Shown here: positions 3,996-55,585 of the stretch, one piece after another
Layout of the letters: the number at the start of each line of letters is the position of its first letter
How positions within the stretch are numbered: position 1 is the stretch's first letter
Assembly (NCBI GenBank): GCA_963774075.1
Contig: CAVZDP010000003.1
Coordinates: 408,062-472,061 of the forward strand
Origin: an uncultured Solirubrobacterales bacterium
GTDB taxonomy: Bacteria > Actinomycetota > Thermoleophilia > Solirubrobacterales > JBBDJG01
DNA: 64,000 bases
Direction of reading: 5' to 3'
Notes under the pieces: model-generated
The model's input: the letters and a program-made list of their open reading frames with translations, nothing else
The model's database searches: none
What the model was told of the DNA's origin: nothing
Made by a program: the position numbers and the translations under genes

Positions 3996-4102
3996 TGCTG
4001 TTGCCCCGCAGCGGCCGTTTCACTCTTCCCCGGCACTGAGGGGACCTCCTAGACTTTGAGGTCAAAGGCCACGACGCCCGTGCCTTCGCACCCGGGCCGG
4101 CC

Positions 4103-6601: not shown

Positions 6602-6608
6602 ACAGTAG

Positions 6609-19310: not shown

Positions 19311-20606
19311 TCAGCCGGTCAGCACTGGCTCTCGGCGCAGAGTGAGCAGGTCGTCATACAGCTGACTGAGGTTCGCCGTGTGCTCCTGCATGGTGTAGAC
19401 GGGCTTGATCCCGGCGTGGAGCTGCTCCCACAGGCCCGGCGTGTCCACAGCTCTCTGGATCGTGTCCGCGAGGTTCTGCGGGTTTCCGACGCGAAAGTGA
19501 AGCCCGTCCACCCCGTCGGTGACCTTCTCCGCCATTCCCCCGACGTCGCTGCAGATCACAGGCCTGCCGTGGAGGAACGCCTCCTGGATCACCAGCGGCG
19601 AGTTCTCCCACCACAGGGACGGAACCACGATCCAGTCGGCTTCGCTCATGAGCCCCGCGACCGCCGCGCGGCTGTAGGCGCCGCGGTTGGCGACCGTCGG
19701 TCCCGCCTCCTGGAGCAGGTTGTGGAACGCGCCCCTCCAGTGCTCGTGCTGCAGCTCCAGGTTGGCCGCGTGGAGCGAGAGCTGGATGTCCTGCCGGATC
19801 CCACGCAGTCGCGCCATGGCACCGAGCAGAACCTGCAGACCCTTGTAAGGGTTGGCCTGGCCGAAGAACGCGAGCCGGTTGCGCGGTCTCGGCTGCCCCT
19901 CGTCCGGCGCCGGCACGCGCGGCTCCGGCCAGCGCCCGTAGTCCTCGAACCGAATTCGCTCGCGCGGGAGTCCCCAGTCGACGTAACGCTCGAGCAGGAA
20001 ATGGCTCGGCGCGAGGAACGTGTCGACGTGCTCGAAATGCGACCGGGCGAAGCGCTCTCGCAGAAAGAACTGCTGAGGAGGGATCTCCGGAAAGCACTCG
20101 TTACAGCGCCGCGGCGACCACTGGAGGCACAGCTCGCCGCTCGATCTCTGGAGCTGCCCCTGACGATGGCAGATCGGGAGGTATTCGTGCAGCGTGTAGA
20201 CGATGGGCACCTCCGGCAGGACGCGCCGAGTGAGCGAGACCAGGTCGATCCCCATGAAGAACGTGTGCTGGAAGTGGACGACGTCGGGTTTCTCCGAGCG
20301 GAGGAACTCGGCGAATTTGTTTGTGTACTGCGACTTCTCCCGCAGGGTCATGAGGAAGAAGTCGAAGTGCGCCTCCTCCGTGAAGAAGAAGTGTTGATTT
20401 TCGTCGTCGTTTATGTTGCTGAACGGGGCGCCCGCGTGTGACGTGCGCGGCTTCGACACGTCGTTGCCCAGCCTTGCCATGAGCACGGGTTGGTACTCCT
20501 GCGATTCCCGCATCGCCTCGTAGAGCTCGAGTGCATATGACTCGGATCCGCCAGGACGGATCGACGGGTGGTTGTGGAGTATGTAGAGGACCTTCTTCTT
20601 GCTCAT
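19311..20606 (-). CDS. GT4-type (GT-B) glycosyltransferase with a Cx13Cx7Cx2C insert (paralog 1 of 6)
   Basis: An in-frame ATG at 20606 gives MSKKKVLYILHNHPSIRPGGSESYALELYEAM. It continues PDVVHFQHT..LHEYLPICHRQGQLQRSSGELCLQWSPRRCNECFPE..FFGQANPYKG..VVPSLWWENSPLVIQEAFLHGRPVICSDVGGMAEKV..GLHF (an EX7E-like GT-B C-terminal motif). Confidence 0.85.
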   Translation of the reverse strand: MSKKKVLYILHNHPSIRPGGSESYALELYEAMRESQEYQPVLMARLGNDVSKPRTSHAGAPFSNINDDENQHFFFTEEAHFDFFLMTLREKSQYTNKFAEFLRSEKPDVVHFQHTFFMGIDLVSLTRRVLPEVPIVYTLHEYLPICHRQGQLQRSSGELCLQWSPRRCNECFPEIPPQQFFLRERFARSHFEHVDTFLAPSHFLLERYVDWGLPRERIRFEDYGRWPEPRVPAPDEGQPRPRNRLAFFGQANPYKGLQVLLGAMARLRGIRQDIQLSLHAANLELQHEHWRGAFHNLLQEAGPTVANRGAYSRAAVAGLMSEADWIVVPSLWWENSPLVIQEAFLHGRPVICSDVGGMAEKVTDGVDGLHFRVGNPQNLADTIQRAVDTPGLWEQLHAGIKPVYTMQEHTANLSQLYDDLLTLRREPVLTG

Positions 20607-20831
20607 GTGAGACGCACGCCCAAGCGGGACGTTAGCCACTCCGGCAGGCGCATCGCCAAGCCCGCGTCGCGTTTCACCAGACGCTGCCGCGGCGACGCGC
20701 CGGCGCTCCTGGAGAGCTCTCCCCCCGCCTTTGTGCGGTGCGGCGGGCCCAAATCGGTCGATTAGACTATACATCGAGAAGTAAGGCGGACTGGGCGGCT
20801 CTGGCGCCGGATCGGGAGCGGTAGGTAAGGC
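20607..20831. promoter_or_regulatory. Divergent intergenic region (225 nt) between the minus-strand GT4/X-GT2 pair and the plus-strand cassette array; candidate bidirectional promoter region
   Basis: This is the largest non-coding gap in the core. It contains the only clearly A/T-rich patch (aaatcggtcgattagactatacatcgagaagtaagg, ~20751-20787). That patch has TAGACT (20763-20768, plus strand) and TATAGT (complement of 20766-20771, minus strand) as -10-like TAnnnT hexamers. No convincing -35 element. Confidence 0.35.
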
Positions 20832-21731
20832 TTGCAATCAGGAGGGGACGGGAGCGGTTCGGCTCAGCTGAGCGCAGAGGAGCGCGACCGTGTGCTGGGG
20901 CGGCTGGGGGAAGTGGTACGCACCCACGTGCCGGCGAATACGCCGGTCGCGGTGGTGAGCGATGGGGACAAGGCCTTCGTCGAGATCGAGGGAGCCAACG
21001 CCCTGCACTTTCCGTCCGCGGAAGACGGTGGGCACGCCGGCCGGCTCCCGGCGGACGGAGCGGAGGCGGTCGAGCTGGTCGAGCTCCTGCGGCGGCGCGA
21101 CGTCCAGTACCTCACCTTGCCGAGCCAGGCGTTCTGGTGGCTCGAACGCTATCCGGAGCTGAACCAGCACCTCATCAAGCGCTACCAACTCCTCGCCAGC
21201 GAGGACGCCTGCCTCCTCTATCGCCTCGTCGAGCAGCCCCGGCAGGCCACCGGGCAGGGTGGCCACCCCGCTGCCGACCCGCGCCTCCTGCAGCCCATCA
21301 GGGACCTCCTCGACCACCTCCTCCCGGCACGGACCGCGGTGGCAGTCATGACGCTCGGCGAGGCAGCTCCACTCCCCGGCGTCCAGGCGTGGCAGTTCCC
21401 GCGCGCCGCCCGGGAGGACCTGGGCCTCGCCGCCGGCCACCTGGCTGCGCTCGAGGCGGGCGGCGTGGAGTTTCTCGTAGTGGCGAGGCCTGAACGCGAA
21501 TGGCTCGAGCTTCACCCGGGGCTGCTCGATTACCTGCGCACGCACCACCGCCTGACGACGAGCCAGGAACACCTATGCGACGTGTACGAGCTCTCCGCTC
21601 CGGTCTCGAACGACCCCGTCCCGGACCGGCCGGAGGAGACCGCGCAGCAGCCGAGCCCGGCTCGGCGCACGCCCGTCACGCGCCTGCTGGATCGAGCCCT
21701 TCGCCCGGGCACCGATGGTAACGACCGTTAA
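20832..21731 (+). CDS. Standalone tandem WWLD-domain protein (tD1): two copies of the ~95-aa domain, the second degenerate
   Basis: Copy 1 is VAVVSDGDKAFVEI..HFPSAEDGGHAGRLPADGAEAVELVELLRRRDVQYLTLPSQAFWWLERYPELNQHLIKRY..CLLYRL. Copy 2 is VAVMTLGEAAPL..FPRAA..GHLAALEAGGVEFLVVARPEREWLELHPGLLDYLRTHH..LCDVYEL. The TTG start at 20832 is inferred because the paralogs conserve the region from SAEERDRV onward. Confidence 0.7.
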   Translation: MQSGGDGSGSAQLSAEERDRVLGRLGEVVRTHVPANTPVAVVSDGDKAFVEIEGANALHFPSAEDGGHAGRLPADGAEAVELVELLRRRDVQYLTLPSQAFWWLERYPELNQHLIKRYQLLASEDACLLYRLVEQPRQATGQGGHPAADPRLLQPIRDLLDHLLPARTAVAVMTLGEAAPLPGVQAWQFPRAAREDLGLAAGHLAALEAGGVEFLVVARPEREWLELHPGLLDYLRTHHRLTTSQEHLCDVYELSAPVSNDPVPDRPEETAQQPSPARRTPVTRLLDRALRPGTDGNDR

Positions 21732-23037
21732 CGCCAGGCCGAAGGTCCTCTTCGTCTGCCACAACCACCCGGCGATCCGTCCGGGGGGCGCCGAGGGCTA
21801 TGCGCTGGACCTGTACGAGGCGATCGGCCTGGCGGGAGAATTCGAGCCGTACTTCCTCGCGCGTGTAGACAACGACCAGCGAGAGGCTCTCTCGCATCAC
21901 GAAACGACGCCGATCACGGGGGTACAGGGCGATCCGAACCAGTACTTCCTGTTCACCGACCTGTCGCAGTGGGACTGGCTCTTCGGCAGGTACCCCGACA
22001 AGACGCCACTGGTCCCGTTCTACCGTGATTTCCTGCAAGCGCTCAAGCCGGACGTCGTCCATTTCCAGCACACCGTGTTCATCGGCTACGACATTCTGCG
22101 CGTGACACGAAACGCGTTGCCGGACTCGCCGATCGTGTACATGCTGCACGAGTACATGCCAATTTGTCTGCGCGGGGGGCAGCTGGTGAGGGTGCATGGG
22201 GACGACCTGTGTCAAAAGGCCTCGCCGCGACGCTGCCACGAATGCTTTCCCAACCTCAGCATGCCCGAGCTCTTCATGCGCGAGCGTTTCGTCAAGTCGC
22301 AGCTGGCGCTAGTGGATTTGTTCCTGACGCCGAGCGCGTACGCCAGAGAGCGCTACATCGACTGGGGCCTGTCAGCCGACTCGATCCGAGCCGTCGAGCA
22401 CGGACTGCGGCCCGTTCAGAGGCTGCCGGAGACCAATGAGGAACGGCCCCGCAACCGCTTTGCGTTCTTCGGCCAGTTCACTCCCACCAAGGGCGCCGAC
22501 GTCTTCCTCGAGGCGGTGAAGCGGCTGGGCGACGACTTCGACGGCCACGTCTGGTTCCACGGCGCGAATCTCGAGGTGCAGCCGCCCGACTTCAGGGAGC
22601 GGATCGAACGGCTGCTGGAGGCGACGGGCGGAAAGGTCAGCATGAGAGGCTCCTATGACCATTCGGGCCTCGCGAAGCTGATGAACCAGATCGACTGGGT
22701 CGTCGTGCCGTCGATCTGGTGGGAGACCGGGCCGCTGGTCGTTCCGGAGGCGTTCCTGTACGGAAGGCCGGTCATCTGCAGCGATATCGGGGGGATGTCC
22801 GAGCGGGTGACCTCCGGGGTCAACGGGCTGCACTTCCGCCGGGCCGATCCGGACAGCCTGGCAGAGGCGATGCTGAAGGCTTCCCGCACTCCCGGGCTGT
22901 GGGAAGAGCTGAGGGCGGGGATCCCGCCGGTGCAGACCATGGAACAGCACGCCGAGCTGGTCGGCGGCATGTACCGTGAGCTTCTCGCCGGACGGCGCGC
23001 AACCGTCGCTCCCGCCGTGCCGAGCACCTCCGCATAG
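21715..23037 (+). CDS. GT4-type glycosyltransferase with Cx13Cx7Cx2C insert (paralog 2 of 6)
   Basis: It reads KVLFVCHNHPAIRPGGAEGYALDLYEAI..PDVVHFQHT..LHEYMPICLRGGQLVRVHGDDLCQKASPRRCHECFPN..FFGQFTPTKG..VVPSIWWETGPLVVPEAFLYGRPVICSDIGGMSERV. The start overlaps the upstream stop by 17 nt. Confidence 0.9.
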   Translation: MVTTVNARPKVLFVCHNHPAIRPGGAEGYALDLYEAIGLAGEFEPYFLARVDNDQREALSHHETTPITGVQGDPNQYFLFTDLSQWDWLFGRYPDKTPLVPFYRDFLQALKPDVVHFQHTVFIGYDILRVTRNALPDSPIVYMLHEYMPICLRGGQLVRVHGDDLCQKASPRRCHECFPNLSMPELFMRERFVKSQLALVDLFLTPSAYARERYIDWGLSADSIRAVEHGLRPVQRLPETNEERPRNRFAFFGQFTPTKGADVFLEAVKRLGDDFDGHVWFHGANLEVQPPDFRERIERLLEATGGKVSMRGSYDHSGLAKLMNQIDWVVVPSIWWETGPLVVPEAFLYGRPVICSDIGGMSERVTSGVNGLHFRRADPDSLAEAMLKASRTPGLWEELRAGIPPVQTMEQHAELVGGMYRELLAGRRATVAPAVPSTSA

Positions 23038-23068
23038 CCGATGCCCAACCCGCTCGAGGAATAGGTCG

Positions 23069-24385
23069 ATGTCCAAGCCCAAAGTTCTCTACGTCGCCCA
23101 GAACCATCCCGAGGTGCGCCCAGGCGGAGCCGAGGGCTATGCGCTCGACCTCTATCACGCGATGCGCCGCATCGGCGAATTCGAGCCGATCTTCTGCGCG
23201 CGTACCGGGCCCCCGATCTCGAAGGTGAAGCGAACCCTCACCGGTGCCCCCTTCACGGCCGCGAACGAGGATCCGAATCAGTACTTCTTCTGGACCGACC
23301 TCACGCACTACGACTGGTTCTACGGGCGTCCGCCCGACAAGTCGATACTGACGAGGTTCTTCCGCGACTTTCTGCTCACGCACCGGCCGGACGTGATCCA
23401 CTTCCAGCACACACTGTTCATCGGCTACGAGGCCGTTCGGATCGCGAGGCGAACGTTGCCGGACACCCCAATCGTGTACATGCTGCACGAGTACCTGCCG
23501 ATCTGTCATCGCGACGGGCAGATGGTCCGCACGCTCGAGAACGACCTCTGCCAGCTCGAGACCCCGCATCGCTGCCACGAGTGCTTTCCGGAAACCAGCC
23601 CGCAGACCTTCTTCGCGCGCAAGCGCTTCATCCAGTCTCAGCTTCGTCACGTCGACGTGTTCATCGCTCCGAGCGAGTACGTGCGCGAGCGCTATGCCGC
23701 CTGGGGAATTCCCGCGGAGAAGATCAGGGTCGAGCCCTACGCCTGCTTCCCCGTCGCAAAACTGGAGACGGACGACCACCAGGGGCCACGAAACAGATTC
23801 GCCTTCTTCGGTCAGTTCACCCCGTACAAGGGCGCTGACGTTCTGCTTCAGGCGATGGCGCAGCTCGGTGACGACTTCGGCGGCCATCTCTGGATCTACG
23901 GCGCCAACCTCGAGACCCAGCGCCCGGAGTTTCGCGAGATGTTCGAGTCCATGCTCGAGGCCACCGGGCGCACGGTGACGTTCGCGGGCCACTACGACCA
24001 CGCCGACTTGCCGAAGCTGATGGAGCGGATCGACTGGGTGGTCGTGCCGTCGATCTGGTGGGAGACGGGGCCCATCGTGGTGCTCGAGGCGTTCCAGTAC
24101 GGGCGCCCCGTCATCTGCAGCGACATCGGCGGGATGTCGGAGAAGGTCACCCACGAGGTCAGCGGACTGCATTTTCGCCGCGGGGATCCGGCCAGCCTTG
24201 CCGAGGCGATGCGTCGGGCCGTGGAGACGCCTGGCATCTGGGACACCCTGCGTACCGGGATCCCCCAGGTTCCGATGATCATGGAGCACGCGCGGGTGCT
24301 GTCGGATCTCTATCGAGATCTGCTTGCCGCGCGCCGGACGCGCCAGAAGGCGGGCCTCGAGACGGTTGGAGCCACCGATGACTGA
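23069..24385 (+). CDS. GT4-type glycosyltransferase with Cx13Cx7Cx2C insert (paralog 3 of 6)
   Basis: An in-frame ATG at 23069 (MSKPKVLYVAQNHPEVRPGGAEGYALDLYHAM) is preceded by GAGGAA. It continues LHEYLPICHRDGQMVRTLENDLCQLETPHRCHECFPE..VVPSIWWETGPIVVLEAFQYGRPVICSDIGGMSEKV. Confidence 0.9.
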   Translation: MSKPKVLYVAQNHPEVRPGGAEGYALDLYHAMRRIGEFEPIFCARTGPPISKVKRTLTGAPFTAANEDPNQYFFWTDLTHYDWFYGRPPDKSILTRFFRDFLLTHRPDVIHFQHTLFIGYEAVRIARRTLPDTPIVYMLHEYLPICHRDGQMVRTLENDLCQLETPHRCHECFPETSPQTFFARKRFIQSQLRHVDVFIAPSEYVRERYAAWGIPAEKIRVEPYACFPVAKLETDDHQGPRNRFAFFGQFTPYKGADVLLQAMAQLGDDFGGHLWIYGANLETQRPEFREMFESMLEATGRTVTFAGHYDHADLPKLMERIDWVVVPSIWWETGPIVVLEAFQYGRPVICSDIGGMSEKVTHEVSGLHFRRGDPASLAEAMRRAVETPGIWDTLRTGIPQVPMIMEHARVLSDLYRDLLAARRTRQKAGLETVGATDD

Positions 24386-26240
24386 CGCGGCGACCTCCTC
24401 CCGCGAGCGCCGGCGCGGGAGGCAACGGCAACAGCGCGCCGGCGGCGTGGCGGCGCTCGGCCCCCGGGTGCTGGTGGCGGTCGGAGAGCTCGCGTCCACG
24501 CGGGGCTCCGAAGTGGAGCTCGCTCAAGGGCGAGAGCGGCTCGAGGCCGAATGTCACATGCTCACGTTCGAGCGCCCCGACCCGGACGGCAGCCCCGAGC
24601 CGGCTCAGCTCCTGTGTGCCGTGATCACCTCCGAAGACTGGGACGTCAACTCCCAAGGGCCGGTGACGCTTACGGCGAACGGGAGCAGCTTCGAGCTCGA
24701 CCCCCGCGCTCAGCTGCAGGCAGCCCTCGGAGCGCTGGTCCGCCGTGACCTCGCCCCTCTCGACGGGCGAACCCGCAACCGGATCAGCGACTTCATGGCA
24801 CGCGCGTGCGCGTCGGCGCTCGCTGGAGCCGGCGGGCTCCGCGTCAGCGAGCGGCTGTTCTCGCTGCGCCAGGCGCTGCGCGAGCGGCTTCCCGTGCACG
24901 CAAACCAGCCCGAGCATCCGATGGGGCTGTATGCCGATCGCCTGCTCGCGATCGATGAGCGCTCTTATTACCTGCGCGGCTGGATGCGAGACGAGGCATC
25001 GAGGGCGGTGCGGCTGACCGCGGTGTCCCCGGAGGGTGCCCGCATGGACCTGCTCGACAGGCTCTACCGCTTCCCACGTCCCGATGTACTCGACTTCTAC
25101 TCCGGGCTCGGCCGGGCGACGGACACGAGACTCGGCATGCTGTCCTTCTTCGACCTCGGCGTCCCGAGCATGGAACCGGCGGGGTGGATATTGGAGATGG
25201 AGGAGGGGGATGGCGCGGCAATCGAGGTCGCCATTCCCCCCGTTGTCCGCGACCCCGAGGTGGTGCGCAACACGATTCTCGAGGACGCCCTGCGCGAGCG
25301 GCAGCTGGACCGGCGGCTGATGGTCGACAACGTCAAGCCGGCGCTGACGCTGATGCAAGAGCGGCTCGAGCAAACGGTGCGCGTGCGTGCCGTCAATCAG
25401 TACGGAGTCGGGCCCGAATCGCCTGACGTGTCCATCATCGTGCCGCTGTACCAGCACATCGAACACGTCGAGATGCAGATGGCCGAGTTCGGCGACGACC
25501 CGCAGTTGCGAGACGCCGACCTGATCTACGTGTTGGACTCGCCCGAGCAGGCCGACGCGCTCGACTTCACGGCGGGCCAGCTCGAGCAGATCTACGGGAT
25601 CCCCTTTCGAACCGTGGTGCTGGAGCACAACGTCGGCTTCGCCGGAGCGAACAACGCCGGCTTCGGCCTCGCCCGCGGGCGGCTTCTGCTATTGCTCAAC
25701 TCGGACGTCTTGCCGGCACGGCCGGGATGGCTGCGGGCGATGGCGGAGTTCTACGACCAGACGCCAGGCATCGGGGCGCTCGGTCCGAAGCTCCTATACG
25801 AGGACGATTCGATCCAGCACGCGGGCATGTGCTTCCATCAGCCTCCGGGCAGCCCCGACTGGCTCGACGCCCACTTCTTCAAGGGCATGCATCGCACGTT
25901 GCCCGAGGCGAACGTCGCCCGCCCGGTGCCCGCCGTGTCGGGGGCCTGTCTCATGATCGCGGCGGACCTCTACCGGCGCCTTCCGTTGCGTGGCATCTAC
26001 GTCCGGGGAGACTACGAGGACTTCGATCTCTGTATGCGGCTGACCGAGGCGGGTCTGGAGAACTGGTACGTCCCAAGCGCCGAGCTCTACCACCTCGAAG
26101 CACAGTCATACACCAGCCAGCTGCGCGGGCCCACCAACCGCTACAACATGTGGCTCCACACGCATCTGTGGAGCGACACGATCGAGCAGCTCATGAGCTC
26201 CGATCGCTACCGGCCCACCGGCGACCTCAGGCCGACATGA
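24378..26240 (+). CDS. X-GT2 glycosyltransferase (paralog 2 of 4)
   Basis: The ATG at 24378 overlaps the upstream stop by 8 nt (ATGACTGA). The N-domain is LLAIDERSYYLRGWMRDEASRAVRLTAVSPEG..LYRFPRPDV..GWILEME. The GT2 part is VSIIVPLYQHIEHVEMQMAEF..LIYVLDSPE..NVGFAGANNAG..LLNSDVLPARPGW..LLYEDDSIQHAGM..GDYEDFDLCMRL. Confidence 0.85.
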   Translation: MTDAATSSRERRRGRQRQQRAGGVAALGPRVLVAVGELASTRGSEVELAQGRERLEAECHMLTFERPDPDGSPEPAQLLCAVITSEDWDVNSQGPVTLTANGSSFELDPRAQLQAALGALVRRDLAPLDGRTRNRISDFMARACASALAGAGGLRVSERLFSLRQALRERLPVHANQPEHPMGLYADRLLAIDERSYYLRGWMRDEASRAVRLTAVSPEGARMDLLDRLYRFPRPDVLDFYSGLGRATDTRLGMLSFFDLGVPSMEPAGWILEMEEGDGAAIEVAIPPVVRDPEVVRNTILEDALRERQLDRRLMVDNVKPALTLMQERLEQTVRVRAVNQYGVGPESPDVSIIVPLYQHIEHVEMQMAEFGDDPQLRDADLIYVLDSPEQADALDFTAGQLEQIYGIPFRTVVLEHNVGFAGANNAGFGLARGRLLLLLNSDVLPARPGWLRAMAEFYDQTPGIGALGPKLLYEDDSIQHAGMCFHQPPGSPDWLDAHFFKGMHRTLPEANVARPVPAVSGACLMIAADLYRRLPLRGIYVRGDYEDFDLCMRLTEAGLENWYVPSAELYHLEAQSYTSQLRGPTNRYNMWLHTHLWSDTIEQLMSSDRYRPTGDLRPT

Positions 26241-27234: not shown

Positions 27235-28537
27235 AGACAAGGTCCTCTACGTCTGCCACAACCACCCGGCGATCACGCCTGGTGGTGCAGAGAGCATTGC
27301 GCTCCAGCTCTACGAGGGCATGCGCGATGCCGGCGAGCTCGATGCGGTCTTCCTCGCCCGCAGCGGTCCTCCCGTCTCCATCACGGCCCGCGTGCACGAA
27401 GGCCGCCCGCTGACGCTCGTCAACGACGACCCGAATCAGTACTTCTTCTACACCGACCTCTCCGATTGGGATTGGCCGTTCGGGCGCTCTCCGAACAAGT
27501 CGGCGCTAACGCGCTTCTTTGCCGACTTCCTCCTGGATCAGGATCCTGACGTCGTCCACTTCCAGCACTCGACGTTCCTCGGATACGACGCGCTGCGGGT
27601 GACGCGTAACACTCTGCCGGACGTGCCGATCGTTTACACGCTGCACGAGTTCCTGCCCATCTGCTTCCACGACGGCAAGCTAGTCAGGACGCGCAACTAC
27701 GAGCCCTGCCTCGAGGCCTCGCCACGTCGCTGCCACGAGTGCTTTCCGGCCATCAGCCAGCAGACCTTCTTCATGCGCGAGCGGTTCATCAAGTCGCATC
27801 TCTCGGTCGTTGACCAATTCATCTCGCCGAGCCGTTTTCTGCGCGACCGCTACGTGGACTGGGGCCTGCCGGCGGAGAAGATCATGGTCGAGGAGAACGG
27901 CCGCCTCGCGGTCGAGAAGCTGCCGCCGACCGAGGGGCGCCGAAACCGGTTCGCCTTCTTCGGGCAGCTCACCCAGTACAAGGGCATCGACGTGCTGCTG
28001 AAGGCGATGGCGCTTCTCGACGAGGCGGAGTTCGAAGCACAGGTCTTCATCCACGGCGCGAACCTGGACTGGGCCCCCGAGGACTTCAAGGACGAGCTCC
28101 TAGCCCTGCTCGACGCCGCCGGGCCGTCGGTGAGCCTGGTTGGAATCTATGAGCCGCACGAGCTGCGCAATCTCATGCAGGAGGTGGATTGGGTCCTGGT
28201 GCCCTCGATCTGGTGGGAGAACTCGCCGCTCGTGATTCAGGAAGCCTTCATGTATGGGCGGCCGGTCATCTGCAGCGACATCGGCGGAATGGCGGAGAAG
28301 GTGACCGACGGCGTCGATGGGCTCCACTTCCGGCGGGCCGACCCGGAGAGCCTCGCCGAGGTGATGCAGAGGGCGGTGACCACGGAAGGGCTCTGGGAAA
28401 GGCTGCGCGCAAACGCCCCGCAGGTCCAAACGATGCGCGATCACGTCGCGACGCTCACCGGGACGTACCGCAGGCTGCTTGCCGACCGCGAGGGGCAGGT
28501 CTCCGAGTCCGACGGCGAGGTGGTGCAGCTTGCATAA
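27218..28537 (+). CDS. GT4-type glycosyltransferase with Cx13Cx7Cx2C insert (paralog 4 of 6)
   Basis: An in-frame ATG at 27218 (MAPVPRDKVLYVCHNHPAITPGGAESIALQLYEGM) overlaps the upstream stop by 17 nt, as at 21715. It continues LHEFLPICFHDGKLVRTRNYEPCLEASPRRCHECFPA..LVPSIWWENSPLVIQEAFMYGRPVICSDIGGMAEKV. Confidence 0.9.
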   Translation: MAPVPRDKVLYVCHNHPAITPGGAESIALQLYEGMRDAGELDAVFLARSGPPVSITARVHEGRPLTLVNDDPNQYFFYTDLSDWDWPFGRSPNKSALTRFFADFLLDQDPDVVHFQHSTFLGYDALRVTRNTLPDVPIVYTLHEFLPICFHDGKLVRTRNYEPCLEASPRRCHECFPAISQQTFFMRERFIKSHLSVVDQFISPSRFLRDRYVDWGLPAEKIMVEENGRLAVEKLPPTEGRRNRFAFFGQLTQYKGIDVLLKAMALLDEAEFEAQVFIHGANLDWAPEDFKDELLALLDAAGPSVSLVGIYEPHELRNLMQEVDWVLVPSIWWENSPLVIQEAFMYGRPVICSDIGGMAEKVTDGVDGLHFRRADPESLAEVMQRAVTTEGLWERLRANAPQVQTMRDHVATLTGTYRRLLADREGQVSESDGEVVQLA

Positions 28538-28538
28538 C

Positions 28539-29894
28539 ATGGTCACCGACCAGGTTGAGTCGAGCAACGGGGGCAGGCGGCGTCCCAAGGTCATGTTCGT
28601 CGCTCACAACCATCCGCAGATCCGGCCCGGCGGGTCGGAGGGCTACGCGTTCGAGGTCTACGAGGAGATGCGTGACCAGGGCGAGTTCGAGCCGGTCTTC
28701 GTGGTCCGCAGCGGGCCACCGATCTCCATCGCCGACCGGCAGCACGAAGGCCGTCCATTCACGCTTGCCAACAACGACCCCAACCAGTATCTCTTCTACA
28801 CCGACCCGACCGGCTTCGACTGGCTCTACGGCCGCTCACCGCACAAGTCGGCCCTAACCAGGTTCTTCAGCGACTTTCTCCTCGACCAGCAGCCGGACCT
28901 GGTCCACTTCCATCACACGATGTTCCTCGGCTACGACATCCTCCGCGTCACGCGCAACACCCTTCCCGACGTTCCGATCGTCTACACGATCCACGATCAC
29001 ACGCTGATCTGCAACCGCGACGGCCAGATGGTGAGGACGGGCACGGACCAGCTCTGCAACGAGGCGTCGCCACGTCGCTGCCACGAGTGCTTCCCGGGCA
29101 TCAGCCAGCAGACCTTCTTCATGCGCGAGCGCTTCATCAAGTCTCAGCTGTCGGCGGTGGACCTCTTCATAATTCCGAGCAAGGACGCGTTCGAGCGCTA
29201 CGTCGATTGGGGGATCCCTAGATCGCGCATCGTCCACGAGCCACACGGCCGCCCGCCGAGGGAGATGATCGATGACGCCGACGCCGATCTCCCGCGTGAC
29301 CGGTTCGGCTTCTTCGGCCAGCTGACGGCGTACAAGGGAGCCAACGTGCTGCTCGAGGCGATGTCCCTGCTGGGCGAGGATTTCAAGGGCACGTTGACGA
29401 TTCACGGGGCGAACCTCGAGATCGCTGAGCAGGAGTTCCAGGAGCAGCTCACCGCGCTGCTGGAGGACTCCCACGCCAACGTTCGCCTGGCCGGCGAGTA
29501 CACCTACAGTGACCTGCCGAACCTGATGGAGCGGATCGACTGGGTGGTAGTCCCGTCGATCACCTACGAAACGGGCCCTCTCACGCTTCTCGAGGCGTTC
29601 GAGCACGGCCGACCGGTCATCTGCAGCGACATCGGCGGAATGGCCGAGAAGGTGACCGACGGCGTCGATGGGCTCCACTTTCGGCGCGGCAACGCCCACA
29701 GCCTCGCTTCGACGTTGCGGCGCGCCGCGAGCGACCCGGAGCTCTGGAAAGAGCTCCGCGCCGGAATACCGCCAGTACAGACGATGAGCGACCACATCCA
29801 TCGACTCGCAGGTCACTACCGGTCTCTGCTCGAGCGGCCGCAGCAGATGTCTCGGTCGGCCTCGGGCGGCGGAAAGGTGCATCAGCGTGCCTAG
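28539..29894 (+). CDS. GT4-type glycosyltransferase with Cx13Cx7Cx2C insert (paralog 5 of 6)
   Basis: The ATG at 28539 lies 1 nt after the upstream TAA. It reads MVTDQVESSNGGRRRPKVMFVAHNHPQIRPGGSEGYAFEVYEEM..IHDHTLICNRDGQMVRTGTDQLCNEASPRRCHECFPG..VVPSITYETGPLTLLEAFEHGRPVICSDIGGMAEKV. Confidence 0.9.
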   Translation: MVTDQVESSNGGRRRPKVMFVAHNHPQIRPGGSEGYAFEVYEEMRDQGEFEPVFVVRSGPPISIADRQHEGRPFTLANNDPNQYLFYTDPTGFDWLYGRSPHKSALTRFFSDFLLDQQPDLVHFHHTMFLGYDILRVTRNTLPDVPIVYTIHDHTLICNRDGQMVRTGTDQLCNEASPRRCHECFPGISQQTFFMRERFIKSQLSAVDLFIIPSKDAFERYVDWGIPRSRIVHEPHGRPPREMIDDADADLPRDRFGFFGQLTAYKGANVLLEAMSLLGEDFKGTLTIHGANLEIAEQEFQEQLTALLEDSHANVRLAGEYTYSDLPNLMERIDWVVVPSITYETGPLTLLEAFEHGRPVICSDIGGMAEKVTDGVDGLHFRRGNAHSLASTLRRAASDPELWKELRAGIPPVQTMSDHIHRLAGHYRSLLERPQQMSRSASGGGKVHQRA

Positions 29895-31743: not shown

Positions 31744-31830
31744 GGCCGGCGCGGGTTACGCGGCCGCAGCCGCGCGTGCAGAGCGGGAAACGGCACGGTC
31801 CCCCAACTAGACTTGAGAGGTGGAGAGGAA

Positions 31831-32781
31831 GTGAACGCGGGTGCATCGAGAGGCCCAACCAGCGTGACCGCGGAGCCTGCCAAGGGGCCCTATCCGCGCG
31901 TCACGAGCTCCGAGTACGCCCACACCGTCCAGCGACTTCAGGAGATCGTCAGCACCAGCGTGCCGGCTGACGCGGTCGTGCTGATCGCAAGCAGGGGCGA
32001 CGAGGCGCTCTTGGAGCTGGACAGGCGCGAGGGGTGGCACTTCCCGCAGGCCTCGAACGGCGAGTACGCCGGCCACTATCCAGAGGATGGGGCGAGCGCA
32101 ATCTCCCATCTCGAGGAGCTGCGAGGCCGTGGCGCGCAATACGTCGCGTTTCCCGAAACGGCCATGTGGTGGCTCGACCACTACGGCGAGCTACGCGAGC
32201 ATCTCGAAGACCGCTGCCGCCTCGTCGCCGACGAGCCGGAGTGCAGGGTCTTCGAGCTTGCGGCCGTCGCGCCCGAGGGGGTGCTCGCCGAAACGGAATC
32301 GTCGCCCGTCGAGCCCATGCCCGGTGCCGCCACGTCGCGCCTGCACGCGGAGGACTTCAAAGCGTTGCGCGAAGTTGTGCGAGGCCTGCTTCCGCCCAAC
32401 GCGAGCGCCGCCGTCGTGGGTTCGGACCCCGCGACGCTGAGCGCGCTCGAGCTCGATGGTTACCGCGTTTGGGCGATCGAGCCCGACGCCGGCGCGCCGG
32501 CCGCGGAGCTCGCGGAAGCTGAGCGCCTTGGTTGTCGCTTTCTGGTCGTCACCAGAGCGGGCTTCGACTCTCTGGACGAGATGACGGAGCTGAGCGACCA
32601 CGTCCGGCGCCGGTATTCGTTCGTGACCCGGCAGGAGGAGCTGTGCGAGATCTACGAGCGCCGCGAAAGCTCCCAGGGCTCTCAGGGAGCGGCTCATGCG
32701 GCGACGGACGGCCCCGGCGGGCAGTCCCTGCTCGCGCGCCTGCGCTCGATGCTCCCCGGCCGCCGCGGCGGGAAAGCGTAG
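31831..32781 (+). CDS. Standalone tandem WWLD-domain protein (tD3)
   Basis: Copy 1 is VVLIASRGDEALLELDRREGWHFPQASNGEYAGHYPEDGASAISHLEELRGRGAQYVAFPETAMWWLDHYGELREHLEDRC..CRVFEL. Copy 2 is AAVVGSDPATL..AAELAEAERLGCRFLVVTRAGFDSLDEMTELSDHVRRRY..LCEIYE. I prefer GTG 31831 (GGTGGAGAGGAA immediately upstream) over the track's TTG 31813. Confidence 0.75.
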   Translation: MNAGASRGPTSVTAEPAKGPYPRVTSSEYAHTVQRLQEIVSTSVPADAVVLIASRGDEALLELDRREGWHFPQASNGEYAGHYPEDGASAISHLEELRGRGAQYVAFPETAMWWLDHYGELREHLEDRCRLVADEPECRVFELAAVAPEGVLAETESSPVEPMPGAATSRLHAEDFKALREVVRGLLPPNASAAVVGSDPATLSALELDGYRVWAIEPDAGAPAAELAEAERLGCRFLVVTRAGFDSLDEMTELSDHVRRRYSFVTRQEELCEIYERRESSQGSQGAAHAATDGPGGQSLLARLRSMLPGRRGGKA

Positions 32782-32786
32782 TCGGC

Positions 32787-34106
32787 ATGAAGGTCCTGTT
32801 CGTCTGCCACAACCACGCGAAGCTGCGCCCCGGCGGAGCGGAAGGCTACGCGCTCGACCTCTACGAGCATCTTCGCGCACGCGACGACTTCACCCCGATC
32901 TTGCTCGCGCGCGCCGAGCCGCCGCGCTCGGATCGCTCCCGCCGGTTCGAGGGCAGGCGGATCAGGCGGGTCGACGACGACCCCAACCAGTACCTCTTCT
33001 ACACGGACCCCAAGGAGCACGACTACCTATTTGGCAAGGGCCGCAACAAGAGCGAGTTGACGCGGTTCTACCGTGAGTTCCTGCTGGCCCAGGAGCCGGA
33101 CGTGGTCCACTTCCAGGGCACGCTGTTCCTCGGCTACGACATCATCCGGGTGACGCGCAACGCTCTGCCTCACGCGGGGATCGTCTACACGCTGCACGAG
33201 TACCTCCCGATCTGCTACCGCGACGGCCAGATGGTCCGCACGAAGGGGAACGAGCTCTGCGGCGAGGAGTCTCCACGCCGCTGCCACGAGTGCTTCCCCG
33301 AGGTGAGCGAGCAGGACTTCTTCCTGCGCAAGGCCTTCATCCAGTCCCATCTCGAGCTGGTCGACCGGTTCATCGCTCCAACGCCCCACACGCTGGAGCA
33401 GTACGTGCAGTGGGGCATCCCGCGCGAGAAGATTCGTCTCGAGTCGCAAGGGATAGTGCGCCCACTGCCCGAGCGGCCGAGGCGGCGGCCGGCCACTCGG
33501 GACCGCAGGCGAAACTGCTTCGGCTACTTCGGCCAGCTCACTCCCTACAAGGGCGTCGACGTGCTGCTGAGGGCGATCGACGCGCTCGGAGACGAGTTCG
33601 ACGGGAAGCTGTGGATCCACGGCGCGAACCTGGAGCATGCAAAGCCCGAGTTTCGGGCCGAGCTGCGCGCGCTGCTCGAGCGCACGAAGGACCGGGTCAC
33701 GTTCGCCGGTCGCTACGAGAGGCACGAGCTGCCCGAGCTGATGGAGCGGATCGACTGGGTTGTGATCCCGTCGATCTGGTGGGAGACCGGCCCGCTCACG
33801 GTGTCGGAGGCCTTCATGCACGGCCGTCCGGTGATCTGCTCGAACATGGGCGGAATGGCGGAGCGCGTCGAGGACGGGGTCAGCGGTCTGCACTTCCGCC
33901 GTGGCGATCCCCACGACCTCGCGGACGTGCTGCGGCGAGCGTCGACCGCGCCGGAGCTCTGGGACGAGCTGCGCGCCGGCATACCCGAGGTTCATTGGAT
34001 GAAGGACCACGCGGCCGTGCTTGGCGAGCTGTACAGGGAGCTCGCCGCCTCGCGCTCCCCCGCCAGCTCGCCGCTCGAGACGCGCGAGGCACTCAGGAGT
34101 GCCTGA
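32787..34106 (+). CDS. GT4-type glycosyltransferase with Cx13Cx7Cx2C insert (paralog 6 of 6)
   Basis: An in-frame ATG at 32787 gives MKVLFVCHNHAKLRPGGAEGYALDLYEHL. It continues LHEYLPICYRDGQMVRTKGNELCGEESPRRCHECFPE..VIPSIWWETGPLTVSEAFMHGRPVICSNMGGMAERV. Confidence 0.9.
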   Translation: MKVLFVCHNHAKLRPGGAEGYALDLYEHLRARDDFTPILLARAEPPRSDRSRRFEGRRIRRVDDDPNQYLFYTDPKEHDYLFGKGRNKSELTRFYREFLLAQEPDVVHFQGTLFLGYDIIRVTRNALPHAGIVYTLHEYLPICYRDGQMVRTKGNELCGEESPRRCHECFPEVSEQDFFLRKAFIQSHLELVDRFIAPTPHTLEQYVQWGIPREKIRLESQGIVRPLPERPRRRPATRDRRRNCFGYFGQLTPYKGVDVLLRAIDALGDEFDGKLWIHGANLEHAKPEFRAELRALLERTKDRVTFAGRYERHELPELMERIDWVVIPSIWWETGPLTVSEAFMHGRPVICSNMGGMAERVEDGVSGLHFRRGDPHDLADVLRRASTAPELWDELRAGIPEVHWMKDHAAVLGELYRELAASRSPASSPLETREALRSA

Positions 34107-36010: not shown

Positions 36011-37336
36011 GTGAGCTCCGTGACGAAGATCGCGTTCCAGCGCGCCGAGCCCGACGGCGAGAACCTCGCCGACTTCTGGTTCGAGTTCGTCGATGAGGCC
36101 GGCCCGTACGAGCTTATTCTGGACGGGTGGGTGATCGGGGGGCAGGGCCCGGTCCAGGCGGTGGAAGTGGGAGCCGAGGGAATACTTCTGTGGTCCCTGC
36201 CCCTCAACGTTCGCCGGGAGGACCTGCGAGCGTTGCATCCCGAGATACCGTGGTCCGACGGGGCGGGGATCAGGCACGAGCTGAGCGCCCTGAAGCTGCG
36301 AACGGAGTTTTTTTTGGAGGTCGGAGTGCTGCTCGAGAACGGCGATCGGGTCGGCATCGGCTCTCTCGTCGGCAGGCGTGACCCGCTGCCCGCCGGCCCG
36401 TCCCAGTTCGACCCCGTCATGCTCACGTCGCTCGGACGCACGGGCTCGACCTGGGTGATGACGCTCCTCGGCCAGCATCCCGAGATCGTGGTCTACCGTC
36501 CCTTCGACTACGAGCCCAGGGTCACGCGCTACTGGGCCGAGGTCTTCGGCGTGCTCAGCGAGCCCGCCAGCCATCGCCAGGTTCTCGGCGCCGTGGAGGA
36601 GTACTACCCCGAATGGTGGATGGGCAAGAGGCGTGAGCTGCCGCCTGTCGACAGGAGGGATCCAGAGCTGGAGGGGTGGCTCGGTGGGCACGGCGTGGAG
36701 GCGCTGGCGCGAATGTGCCGAGAGAGGTCGGACGACTTCTACGCGCACGTGGCAGGCACGCAAGGGAAGGATGGTGCCCGATACTTCGCCGAGAAGTGGC
36801 TGCCGGGAATGTTCTCTCAGCACATACTCCCCGAGCTCTACCGAGACCCCAAGCAGGTGTTCCTGGTGCGCGACTTCAGGGACATGGCCTCTTCCATAAT
36901 TGCCTTCGACCGCAAGCGTGGGTTCACGGGGTTCGGCCGCTCGACGGACGTCACCGACGCGGAGTACGTCCGCCGCTTGAAGCTGGACGTCGATTCACTT
37001 CTGAGCAGCTGGAGGCGCTACCAGGATTCGGCATTCCTCCTGAGATACGAGGAGTTGATATCCGATCCGGTCCCAACGCTGCGCTCGCTGCTGTCGTATC
37101 TCGACCTCGAAGCGAGCGAGATCCTGGCCGAGCGCATGGTCGAAGAGGCACAGGACGATGCCGCCCGCAGAGGGAGAACGCACCCGACGAGCGCCACTCC
37201 CGCCGCTTCGATCGGCCGCTGGCGGCAAGAGCTCGACGCGGAGGCCCAGGCCGCGTGCGAGGAGGCGTTTCGCGAGGCTCTCGATGCCTTCGGGTACGAC
37301 GAGGAGCGGTACGGAGCGAAGGCTGTTTCTTCCTAG
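36011..37336 (+). CDS. PAPS-dependent sulfotransferase with a ~130-aa N-terminal unknown domain (N-ST paralog 1 of 3)
   Basis: The 5'-PSB-like P-loop is LTSLGRTGSTWVMTLLGQHP. The 3'-PB-like motif is VFLVRDFRDMASSIIAF, then LLRYEELISDP..IGRWRQEL. The GTG start is preceded by GGAGGTGGAGG. The N-terminal domain shares GWV.G...V.AVEV...L.LP.EF with the ORFs at 37953 and 41126. Confidence 0.8.
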   Translation: MSSVTKIAFQRAEPDGENLADFWFEFVDEAGPYELILDGWVIGGQGPVQAVEVGAEGILLWSLPLNVRREDLRALHPEIPWSDGAGIRHELSALKLRTEFFLEVGVLLENGDRVGIGSLVGRRDPLPAGPSQFDPVMLTSLGRTGSTWVMTLLGQHPEIVVYRPFDYEPRVTRYWAEVFGVLSEPASHRQVLGAVEEYYPEWWMGKRRELPPVDRRDPELEGWLGGHGVEALARMCRERSDDFYAHVAGTQGKDGARYFAEKWLPGMFSQHILPELYRDPKQVFLVRDFRDMASSIIAFDRKRGFTGFGRSTDVTDAEYVRRLKLDVDSLLSSWRRYQDSAFLLRYEELISDPVPTLRSLLSYLDLEASEILAERMVEEAQDDAARRGRTHPTSATPAASIGRWRQELDAEAQAACEEAFREALDAFGYDEERYGAKAVSS

Positions 37337-37348
37337 GTCGCGCCCGAG

Positions 37349-37948: not shown

Positions 37949-37952
37949 CGGG

Positions 37953-40480: not shown

Positions 40481-40559
40481 TCCGCGCGAGCGAGGCCCTT
40501 GCGGCGAAGGTGCGCAGGGCACGATCCGATGGACCCGACTCCGGGAGAGTGTCGAGCTG

Positions 40560-41114: not shown

Positions 41115-41125
41115 GGCTTGCCGCC

Positions 41126-55562: not shown

Positions 55563-55585
55563 GCGACCGCCGGCTGAGACTGATC

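Follow-up and report, generated by a model that had tools for sequence, protein, structure and literature searches.

The four GT2 glycosyltransferases in the window (the whole stretch of 64,000 nucleotides analyzed here) carry a real and conserved N-terminal extension, X, which has no assignment in Pfam, NCBIfam or PDB. X is an accessory module of a known GT2 family, that of ExpE2/WgeB and ExpE6/WgeF of the galactoglucan cluster, and does not represent a new type of system. We propose, with a probability of about 0.45, that X is a rigid accessory module of a two-enzyme alpha/beta co-polymerase, where it docks a GT4 enzyme, holds the growing glycan, or does both.

The X module in four paralogs

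All four proteins (618-633 aa) consist of an N-terminal region of ~345 aa (X) followed by a GT2 catalytic domain, and the public gene calls give identical proteins (620, 633, 618 and 621 aa for W1-W4) with the chosen start codons. The assignments rest on Pfam for the GT2 domains, on the AF2 model for X of W1, and on alignment, Pfam and local HMMs for X of W2-W4.

24378-26240, plus strand: W1, X-GT2 ORF, 620 aa
24378..25412, plus strand: X module of W1, residues 1-345, no Pfam match
25413..26240, plus strand: GT2 (GT-A) catalytic domain of W1 (PF13641, PF00535)
17397-19298, minus strand: W2, X-GT2 ORF, 633 aa
18243..19298, minus strand: X module of W2, residues 1-352
17397-18242, minus strand: GT2 domain of W2
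29887-31743, plus strand: W3, X-GT2 ORF, 618 aa
29887..30915, plus strand: X module of W3, residues 1-343
30916-31743, plus strand: GT2 domain of W3
34099-35964, plus strand: W4, X-GT2 ORF, 621 aa
34099..35121, plus strand: X module of W4, residues 1-341
35122-35964, plus strand: GT2 domain of W4

BLASTP identity among W1-W4 is 33-37% for the N-terminal regions (E 1e-29 to 5e-63) and 52-64% for the GT2 parts; over the full length, W2-W4 share 40-47% identity with W1. This confirms the initial annotation, which had described one N-terminal region common to four GT2 enzymes and placed it correctly to within a few codons in all of them. The motif blocks that it had drawn are present, though slightly over-strict (W2 has LIAVSPEG and AFRYGRPDI, W1 has FFDL, and W4 has EIE). 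It had allowed that the similarity might come from low-complexity segments; such an origin is ruled out, since the N-region alone finds homologues at E 2e-54 to 6e-16. Each of W1-W4 has its own ortholog in a related locus, L002, at 62-77% identity (77% for W3 and 62% for W4), which indicates that the four copies are old and have been maintained.

With regard to known domain families, Pfam gave no match to residues 1-345 of W1-W4 at E<=1 and no recurrent match to the N-domains of 23 family members at E<=10, and NCBIfam gave no match over X of W1. Profile searches of PDB with the whole N-domain and with its second beta-sandwich alone reached best E values of only 0.3 and 0.18; the latter hit, to VHH frameworks, was taken as noise or fold-level convergence. 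Foldseek against PDB with the N-domain model returned generic Ig-like structures only (best E 4e-3, TM 0.18, antibody Fabs), among them Ig V-set matches over ~90 residues (highest probability 0.96). A profile search with beta-sandwich 2 for other architectures yielded short fragments only. Thus the domain remained without assignment, as had been stated from the letters alone, and a new Pfam family may be warranted for it.

According to the AF2 model of W1, X is built from four structural units, all on the plus strand.

24429-24701, plus strand: beta-sandwich 1, residues ~18-108
24702-24893, plus strand: helical bundle, residues 109-172
24909-25247, plus strand: beta-sandwich 2, residues 178-290
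25248-25412, plus strand: two linker helices, residues 291-345

Local HMMs for each of these units match all of W1-W4, and the units differ in evolutionary depth, so that the single domain of ~340 aa assumed previously was not borne out. The ancient core of X is an Ig-like beta-sandwich (beta-sandwich 2) with a GW / (S)PEG / RxxRPDV / GF / GW signature, together with the two linker helices, which run into the GT-A fold. The helical bundle and the fast-evolving beta-sandwich 1 precede this core and vary by lineage: beta-sandwich 1 is missing from the ~485-aa versions of Bryobacterales, and the smallest family members lack the whole N-terminal half. The weak conservation already noticed over the first ~100 residues was found again (22-24% identity between paralogs), and a beta-sandwich fold is predicted for them with pLDDT ~80-90. 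Residues of X conserved throughout the family are R133, R168, G201, W202, P218, G220, R234, D236, G253 and P321. Comparison by hhalign of sandwich 1 with sandwich 2 and of the bundle with the linker gave no signal, leaving an internal duplication unsupported.

The models of the N-domain (pLDDT 85.6) and of full-length W1 (pLDDT 87.2) have the same pTM of 0.85, which suggests that the domain arrangement is fixed and that X is packed rigidly against the catalytic domain. No transmembrane segment was predicted by hydropathy, and membrane anchoring of X was dropped on this ground.

The predicted structure bears on two other functions of X. Chain-length control had been suggested from the position of X before the GT2 domain, and ABC-transporter-dependent O-antigen systems do combine terminal methylation with coiled-coil rulers such as WbdD and WbbB; the cluster described below likewise has an ABC exporter and methyltransferases. 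However, WbdD and WbbB have an extended coiled coil between functional domains, which was found in neither the N-domain model nor the full-length model of W1. The helices of X are 5-21 residues long and form a bundle and a helical hairpin, so that a ruler has no structural support. Since minimal family members also dispense with the N-terminal half, we consider a molecular ruler very improbable.

Another idea is that X mediates homo-oligomerization, like the Ig-like trimerization domains of the wall-teichoic-acid glycosyltransferase TarS or the beta-barrel at the N-terminus of GlfT2, which is a tetramer. The two predicted Ig-like sandwiches with a helical bundle, as well as the V-set matches, are in favor of it. 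TarS and TarP of S. aureus, GlfT2 of M. tuberculosis and RmlT of L. monocytogenes likewise combine a GT-A domain with beta-rich accessory domains, which serve oligomerization and polymer-acceptor binding. On the other hand, these domains showed no fold match to X in Foldseek and no sequence relationship in PDB profile searches; those of TarS, TarP and RmlT are C-terminal, whereas X is N-terminal. RmlT was matched through its GT-A domain (E 1.5e-4), and both TarS and GlfT2 were absent from the 50 Foldseek PDB matches listed for either model. Moreover, homo-oligomerization leaves the near-obligate GT4 neighbor unexplained and seems unlikely to us.

Catalytic domain and the ExpE2/WgeB family

Matches to PF00535 and PF13641 are confined to residues ~345-590 in W1-W4 and score 31.7-47 bits in all four proteins, above the gathering cut-offs of 23.3 and 27. 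The GT-A catalytic residues (nucleotide-binding Asp, DxD-type Asp and ED motif) are intact, and D387, D443, E547 and D548 are invariant across W1-W4 and also present in WgeB-type sequences. Foldseek against PDB placed the catalytic domain nearest to GT-A enzymes including ppGalNAc-T, K4CP and hyaluronan synthase; the closest solved folds were ppGalNAc-T1, T2, T4, T10 and T12 (E 7e-10 to 6e-7), aligned over the GT-A domain only with 12-19% identity and TM 0.28-0.33.

The X module is carried by the 552 representative clusters that the N-region profile retrieves and, among species genomes, by 504 loci, mostly of Solirubrobacterales (this locus search used the full-length paralog alignment as query). 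Whether X always accompanies this GT2 subtype had been posed as a question: the pairing holds in 150 of 171 retrieved proteins, the other 21 being fragments of 145-386 aa.

W1-W4 are not orphans: sequence comparison places them, at a distance, in the ExpE2/WgeB family. The X-GT2 alignment matched that of the WgeB family in hhalign (122-608 on WgeB 278-758, probability 100%, E 5e-107) and also matched WgeF (E 1e-38), and the local HMM of beta-sandwich 2 hits both WgeB-type and WgeF-type ORFs. The homology therefore reaches beyond the generic GT2 domain into the upstream beta-sandwich and linker helices. In Sinorhizobium meliloti, the tblastn match (34% identity over ~410 residues) directly follows the genes for a type I secretion system (T1SS) and an RTX calcium-binding protein. 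This identifies it as ExpE2/WgeB, since expE2 has been reported at just this place in the exp/wge operon (PMC1403797; PMC3233446). The WgeB cluster is Wzx/Wzy-independent and has an ABC-type exporter (10.64898/2026.08.21.746188).

Homology between ExpE2/WgeB and W1-W4 extends from the latter half of the helical bundle across beta-sandwich 2 and both linker helices over the entire GT-A domain; retained catalytic residues and an adjacent GT4 partner are further points in common. ExpE2/WgeB differs in its N-terminus: the first ~300 residues of WgeB (749 aa) have no match to beta-sandwich 1, and hhalign found no significant counterpart of beta-sandwich 1 and the first helices (best alternative E 0.007, probability 5%). 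The GT4 gene lies downstream of wgeB in alphaproteobacteria but upstream of W1-W4. The WgeB cluster has T1SS ExpD1/D2, the secreted RTX protein ExpE1, pyruvyl transferases and rml genes; in their place, the window has sulfotransferases, Y proteins and an MsbA-like exporter, and no HlyD-type adaptor was found among the window ORFs scanned.

By analogy with the lectin domain of polypeptide GalNAc-transferases, X might instead recognize a protein substrate, such as a secreted RTX or calcium-binding protein, for glycosylation by these enzymes. The closest solved folds are indeed ppGalNAc-Ts, WgeB-type genes directly follow T1SS and RTX-protein genes in both Azospirillum and Sinorhizobium, and the window itself encodes an RTX protein (62591-63841, minus strand). 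Nevertheless, the low identity to ppGalNAc-Ts reflects the generic GT-A fold, and the C-terminal ricin-type lectin domain of these GT27 enzymes was not detected by Pfam in W1-W4. The RTX gene, the sole one in the window, is ~27 kb away. In actino-type loci, the genes found with X-GT2 are those for GT4, Y and sulfotransferases, not RTX genes. Moreover, the EPS II gene list gives expE2 as encoding a beta-glucosyltransferase (PMC1403797); beta-glucosyl transfer from a dTDP-Glc donor into a beta-1,3/alpha-1,3 disaccharide-repeat polymer is predicted only (PMC1403797; PMC3233446). Recognition of a protein substrate thus appears highly unlikely.

ExpE6/WgeF, a cryptic paralog, is annotated as a "hypothetical protein" without any Pfam match, and has beta-sandwich 2, the linker, a GT2-like domain and the GW / RxxRxD signature in common with W1-W4. 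While W1-W4 keep their catalytic residues, WgeF-type paralogs lack D387, the NSD/DxD motif, E547-D548 and H572. They retain G201, W202, R231, R234, D236 and G253 of beta-sandwich 2, and a GT4 gene still adjoins, following the gene in the case of ExpE6/WgeF. ExpE6/WgeF is probably a pseudo-enzyme, judging from its replaced catalytic Asp and Glu, so that the beta-sandwich 2 signature persists in the absence of catalytic activity in the same chain.

This bears on whether X could simply extend the acceptor site of its own GT2, as in the acceptor recognition suggested initially, with beta-sandwich 2 and the helices walling the groove and setting specificity without binding any partner. Such a role is consistent with the rigid packing suggested by the full-length model, with conserved Arg, Asp and Trp typical of sugar-binding sites, and with an N-region that diverges faster than GT2, as expected if the copies read different acceptors. 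It does not explain why WgeF-type proteins keep the signature after loss of the catalytic residues. In addition, beta-sandwich 1, which diverges fastest, is also the least conserved X unit between orthologs (35-53% identity), suggesting relaxed constraint rather than paralog-specific specificity; the latter was dropped for this unit. We regard the acceptor-site extension as rather doubtful.

GT4 partners, surrounding cluster and proposed polymer

The adjacent GT4 partner, overlooked in the initial annotation, is the strongest functional clue for X-GT2. The cassettes and their surroundings are as follows.

1..8141, plus strand: conserved cluster head (Pfam, NCBIfam, local HMMs)
to 1482, plus strand: membrane GT2, running off the window start
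1479-3995, plus strand: MsbA/ChvA-like ABC exporter
4103-6601, plus strand: GT2 protein with C-terminal Y unit
6609-8141, plus strand: second GT2 protein with C-terminal Y unit
19311..20837, minus strand: GT4 partner of W2 (Pfam), with its end 12 nt before the W2 start
20832..21731, plus strand: Y protein at the head of cassette 1, ~300 aa, without a Pfam family
21715-23037, plus strand: second GT4 in the cassette of W1 (Pfam)
22976..24385, plus strand: GT4 partner of W1 (PF00534, PF13692, PF13439), its stop overlapping the W1 start by 8 nt
26335-27234, plus strand: Y paralog (alignment)
27140-28537, plus strand: second GT4 in the cassette of W3 (Pfam)
28479..29894, plus strand: GT4 partner of W3 (Pfam), 8-nt overlap with the W3 start
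31813-32781, plus strand: Y paralog (alignment)
32532..34106, plus strand: GT4 partner of W4 (Pfam), 8-nt overlap with the W4 start
36011-37336, plus strand: sulfotransferase, downstream of the last cassette (PF13469, PF00685, as for the next two)
37938-39335, plus strand: sulfotransferase
40499-42475, plus strand: sulfotransferase

A GT4 gene lies next to all four copies of X-GT2 in the window, and the 8-nt overlap of GT4 stop and X-GT2 start in three of the cassettes was read directly from the sequence. Among related loci, GT4 adjoins the X-GT2 family gene in 86/93 cases. In actino-type loci it is co-directional and directly upstream (49 of 55), in alpha-type loci it is downstream (37 of 38). 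ExpA23 of S. meliloti is a natural GT2-GT4 fusion. The Y protein has 149 unnamed homologues, precedes actino-type X-GT2 in 35 of 48 loci and gave no hhalign signal with parts of X. In many related loci GT2-Y genes precede the cassette, and several loci have a further GT2 gene at their head. A sulfotransferase gene directly follows X-GT2 in 18/52 related loci; in the window, two ORFs without Pfam match are interspersed among the three sulfotransferase genes (36011..42475).

GT4 is a family of retaining glycosyltransferases. In the preferred reading, X would be a soluble, cytoplasmic module packed rigidly on the catalytic domain, and would provide a platform for docking of the adjacent GT4 and/or holding of the nascent glycan. 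Retaining GT4 and inverting GT2 would then take turns in building a repeat polymer in which alpha linkages alternate with beta linkages, of the type found in galactoglucan, ->3)-beta-Glc-(1->3)-alpha-Gal-(1->. This GT4/X-GT2 unit has been multiplied four times in the Solirubrobacterales-like genome, whose attribution to that order rests on the best related loci and on F420-dependent reductase genes among the window ORFs. Two glycosyltransferase activities also produce an alternating polymer in KfoC (the chondroitin polymerase of E. coli K4), WbbM/N/O (Klebsiella O2a galactan I) and ExpA23, though none of these has the X module; K4CP shows a weak sequence and fold match to X-GT2 through the GT-A domain. 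We infer that polymerization is carried out by the window enzymes. The three sulfotransferases, the methyltransferases and the MsbA-like ABC exporter alongside point to a sulfated, Wzx/Wzy-independent polysaccharide as the putative product of the cluster.

The genetics of galactoglucan (EPS II) synthesis date back to the 1990s and, to our knowledge, include neither a Wzx/Wzy system nor any defined polymerase. An unannotated accessory module is now seen to be common to ExpE2/WgeB and the "hypothetical" ExpE6/WgeF; hundreds of genomes of Actinomycetota, Chloroflexota, Acidobacteriota and Alphaproteobacteria conserve it together with its GT4 partner, and one paralog, WgeF, is apparently catalytically dead but keeps the module signature. 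Together these facts give a concrete hypothesis that is testable in a tractable organism. They also draw attention to soil Solirubrobacterales, in which polysaccharide clusters linked to sulfotransferases form a large uncharacterized family. Sulfated extracellular polysaccharides are, as far as we know, generally held to be rare in bacteria outside cyanobacteria. More speculatively, and with rather low likelihood, beta-sandwich 2 and the linker may be an undescribed glycan-holding and partner-docking domain that defines a distinct and widespread class of soluble two-protein GT4 + X-GT2 co-polymerases, with rhizobial WgeF as a pure scaffold and with the cassettes of soil Actinomycetota, accompanied by sulfotransferases and an MsbA-like exporter, producing sulfated block heteropolysaccharides.

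Structure and conservation of the N-terminal module

Four paralogous proteins encoded in the window (W1-W4) carry an N-terminal region of ~345 aa (X) ahead of a GT2 catalytic domain of GT-A fold. All four genes are large ORFs with high GC3, and the starts chosen give exactly the lengths of the public gene calls, each of whose entries is a singleton at 90% clustering.

X-GT2 genes
24378-26240, plus strand: W1, 620 aa
17397-19298, minus strand: W2, 633 aa
29887-31743, plus strand: W3, 618 aa
34099-35964, plus strand: W4, 621 aa

The translations can be aligned end to end; identity to W1, which serves as reference and whose residue numbers are used here, is 40-47%. The initial annotation described a common region before GT2 in these enzymes, and BLASTP supports this: identity is 33-37% for the N-regions (E as low as 5e-63), rising to 52-64% in the catalytic parts. 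Its motif blocks were also found in the alignment, with minor exceptions. It could not assign the domain, and neither could we. The Pfam GT2 models PF00535, PF13641 and, weakly, PF02709 cover residues ~345-590 only, while no Pfam model at E<=1 matched the first ~345 residues of W1-W4. When 23 N-domains were compared with Pfam at E<=10, 12 different families were hit once each, and no NCBIfam model fell on X. Profile search of X against PDB gave a best E of 0.3, and the second beta-sandwich alone gave 0.18 (camelid VHH frameworks, not significant).

The AlphaFold2 model of the N-domain, built from the 23-sequence N-domain alignment, reached pLDDT 85.6 and pTM 0.85 and consists of four units.

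Predicted units of X
Strands between residues 21 and 107: eight-stranded beta-sandwich 1
Residues 109-167: four-helix segment, ending in the conserved LRxALRERLP
Residues 182-285: eight-stranded beta-sandwich 2
Residues 293-306 and 312-333: two helices running into the first GT-A strand

All the motifs of the initial annotation (D-x7-GW, AVSPEG, RxxRPDV, GF..FEL, GW.LE.E) sit in beta-sandwich 2, where RxxRPDV is predicted to start a short helix. The two sandwiches have no detectable relationship to each other. Foldseek found nothing in PDB for this model at E<=1e-3; its top matches were antibody Fabs at TM ~0.18, so that the predicted fold is generically Ig-like. X is an undescribed module, without Pfam family, NCBIfam family or solved structure. 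The full-length model (pLDDT 87.2) has the same pTM of 0.85, which suggests that X is fixed on the catalytic domain and not flexibly tethered. No transmembrane segment was predicted in X-GT2. The chain-length control proposed in the initial annotation did not gain support, because the AlphaFold2 models contain no extended coiled coil, and we consider a ruler function of X very improbable.

The best-matching loci are from Solirubrobacterales MAGs, led by L002 at 69% identity, which is syntenic with the window and has one ortholog each of W1 (69%), W3 (77%) and W4 (62%).

Identity by unit, orthologs (window versus L002); paralogs within the window
Beta-sandwich 1: 35-53%; 22-24%
Helical bundle: 52-70%; 36-52%
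Beta-sandwich 2: 59-75%; 36-47%
Linker: 60-73%; 27-40%
GT2: 77-89%; 54-63%

Judged from these identities, beta-sandwich 1 is the unit under least constraint. Being least conserved between orthologs too, it is a poor candidate for a determinant of paralog-specific specificity. Among 227 family members, the conserved positions of X are R133, L160, L167, R168, G201, W202, P218, G220, R234, D236, G253, F254, P321 and G343 (raw numbering of that analysis is offset by +17).

Distribution and relation to ExpE2/WgeB and ExpE6/WgeF

A word-indexed search with X retrieved 22 clusters only, all X-GT2 proteins of 450-600 aa or fragments; the exhaustive profile search retrieved 552 representative clusters at E<=1e-3, 220 of them reaching E<=1e-30. 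The same GT2 subtype was present in 150 of the 171 retrieved X sequences and the other 21 were fragments of 145-386 aa, so X always accompanies this catalytic domain, a co-occurrence that the initial annotation had raised for profile searches. Sampling one genome per species gave 504 X-GT2 loci, with further hosts among other Actinomycetota, Chloroflexota, Planctomycetota, Bryobacterales and Alphaproteobacteria. The match begins near residue 170 in Bryobacterales, and at residue ~105-200 in the alphaproteobacterial hosts, which are cultured (Azospirillum, Skermanella, Belnapia, Microvirga, Phyllobacterium and Sinorhizobium/Ensifer). Synteny with L002 and the F420H2-dependent reductase genes encoded in the window agree with its probable Solirubrobacterales origin.

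The homolog on S. meliloti pSymB is a 749-aa 'glycosyltransferase'. Directly before it lie genes for a T1SS permease/ATPase, an HlyD adaptor and an RTX calcium-binding protein, and after it those for a methyltransferase, a GT4, two hypothetical proteins and a further GT4; the other side of the locus holds a MarR regulator, a GT4, a DUF6212 protein, a GT2-GT4 fusion, pyruvyl transferases and rfbABCD. The Azospirillum locus is arranged in the same way. This locus is the exp/wg* galactoglucan (EPS II) cluster and the homolog is ExpE2/WgeB, predicted in reviews to be a beta-glucosyltransferase (PMC1403797, PMC3233446). The X-GT2 family was already known genetically, via ExpE2. The T1SS/RTX neighbourhood in alphaproteobacteria, together with a generic GT-A similarity to ppGalNAc-Ts, would fit recognition of a protein substrate by X; these are the only hints of such a role, which we regard as highly unlikely.

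Profile-profile alignment matched X-GT2 122-608 to WgeB 278-758 (probability 100%, E 5e-107), and the shared unit therefore runs from the middle of the helical bundle through beta-sandwich 2 and the linker and includes GT-A. No significant counterpart of beta-sandwich 1 was seen in WgeB (E 0.007, probability 5%). Since ~485-aa Bryobacterales proteins contain only beta-sandwich 2, linker and GT2, beta-sandwich 2 plus linker is the ancient core of X, and beta-sandwich 1 with part of the bundle is a lineage-variable extension. With high confidence (probability about 0.9) we assign X to the ExpE2/WgeB GT2 family as a soluble accessory module, composite in make-up and rigid in appearance. The actinobacterial and rhizobial proteins differ in N-terminal extension and gene order, and the actinobacterial clusters have sulfotransferases, Y proteins (the second protein family of the cassettes) and an MsbA-like exporter, whereas the rhizobial ones have T1SS, RTX and pyruvyl transferases instead.

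ExpE6/WgeF, a 738-aa 'hypothetical protein' of the S. meliloti locus (L081, 22104-24332) with an Azospirillum counterpart (L079, 15555-17729), has no Pfam match. It was matched by the local beta-sandwich 2 HMM and GT2 HMM, and by the X-GT2 profile at E 1e-38, and is a cryptic paralog of ExpE2/WgeB. In the hmmalign alignment, to be read with some caution, WgeF-type sequences have the positions D387, N441-S442-D443, E547-D548 and H572 replaced and keep G201, W202, R231, R234, D236 and G253 of beta-sandwich 2. As its GT2-like domain no longer has the catalytic Asp, Glu and His, ExpE6/WgeF is probably a pseudo-glycosyltransferase, a degenerate paralog in which the core signature of X persists.

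Cassettes, GT4 partners and possible function of X

Three tandem cassettes in the window have the order Y, GT4, GT4, X-GT2, with only one GT4 in the third, and the minus strand carries a fourth GT4/X-GT2 pair with a methyltransferase after it. Each plus-strand cassette has an 8-nt overlap between GT4 stop and X-GT2 start, which suggests translational coupling of the two genes.

GT4/X-GT2 overlaps
24378-24385, plus strand: ATGACTGA
29887-29894, plus strand: GTGCCTAG
34099-34106, plus strand: GTGCCTGA

Among 81 related loci, a co-directional GT4 was immediately upstream of actino-type X-GT2 in 49/55, a GT4 downstream of alpha-type proteins in 37/38, Y upstream in 35/48 and a sulfotransferase directly downstream in 18/52. 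The GT4 partner is near-obligate. The six GT4s of the window are paralogs (45-60% identical). Those paired inside cassettes 21715-24385 and 27140-29894 share 59-60%, against 45-57% with GT4s of other cassettes, suggesting independent tandem duplication or gene conversion within cassettes.

We tentatively propose that X provides a docking site for the GT4 and/or keeps hold of the nascent chain, a function somewhat less than evenly probable. The inverting GT2 and the retaining GT4 would then alternate on the chain, an alternation compatible with the galactoglucan repeat, a disaccharide with alpha-1,3 and beta-1,3 linkages (PMC1403797). Different units or blocks would come from the four maintained cassettes; the product would then be decorated by sulfotransferases and carried across the membrane by the ABC exporter. 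A purely cis role at the acceptor groove is unlikely, and homo-oligomerisation as the only function equally so. Docking or holding by X would bear on the old question of how galactoglucan-type polymers form without Wzy.

Other genes of the cluster

The genes upstream of the cassettes encode a membrane GT2, an MsbA/ChvA-like ABC exporter and two GT2 enzymes that carry a Y unit at the C-terminus. The scanned window ORFs yielded no Wzx, Wzy or polyprenyl-phosphate phosphoglycosyl transferase.

Further features
1-1482, plus strand: membrane GT2 of PF13632 type, running off the window start and adjoining the exporter, at least 4 predicted transmembrane segments
1479-3995, plus strand: MsbA/ChvA-like ABC exporter with a ~190-aa C-terminal tail (residues ~645-838) beyond the ATPase domain
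4103-6601 (residues 711-829) and 6609-8141 (residues 384-503), plus strand: Y unit at GT2 C-terminus
9000-13409, plus strand: glucose/sorbosone-dehydrogenase-like protein, 1469 aa, three PKD domains
16253-17416, minus strand: Y unit (residues 281-384) at methyltransferase C-terminus
20832-21731, 26335-27234 and 31813-32781, plus strand: stand-alone Y proteins (~300 aa) heading each cassette
36011-37336, 37938-39335 and 40499-42475, plus strand: paralogous sulfotransferases (PF13469/PF00685), downstream of cassettes
48577-50139 (minus strand), 50150-51001, 51687-52598 and 52608-53633 (plus strand): array of four paralogous GT92/Glyco_tranf_2_4 glycosyltransferases
59101-62583, minus strand: protein of 1160 aa, no Pfam match
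62591-63841, minus strand: RTX calcium-binding repeat protein, 416 aa

In many Actinomycetota and Chloroflexota loci, too, a sulfotransferase lies directly 3' of X-GT2, which points to sulfated polysaccharides as products of soil bacteria, among which they are regarded as rare (PMC13390465). The GT2 at 1-1482 is possibly a membrane-bound initiating or synthase-like enzyme of the pathway; several related loci are also headed by a GT2 gene. The exporter tail is proline-rich, and its final Cys-containing segment, CDVCGR...CELCWPH, resembles a zinc-ribbon.

The fused Y unit has ~120 aa with the motif HFPQ...AGHHP.D...WWL, and the Y family has no Pfam or NCBIfam match. There are 149 Y homologues, the best 120 of which are either nameless or 'hypothetical protein'; against PDB sequences, Y gave only short matches spanning 64 residues, with phosphofructokinase (E ~9e-5) and with a designed TIM barrel. 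At 20832-20837 the divergent Y (plus strand, from 20832) and GT4 (minus strand, to 20837) genes overlap at the 5' ends of their longest ORFs, leaving virtually zero intergenic room for promoters, and the true starts are probably internal. A shadow ORF of high GC3 (20838-21572, 244 aa) runs antisense to Y.

The GT92 array is followed by several ORFs with no or weak Pfam match (53637-57735) and a YdjC-like protein (57776-58480). The 1469-aa, 1160-aa and 416-aa proteins flanking the cluster are putative large surface or secreted proteins.
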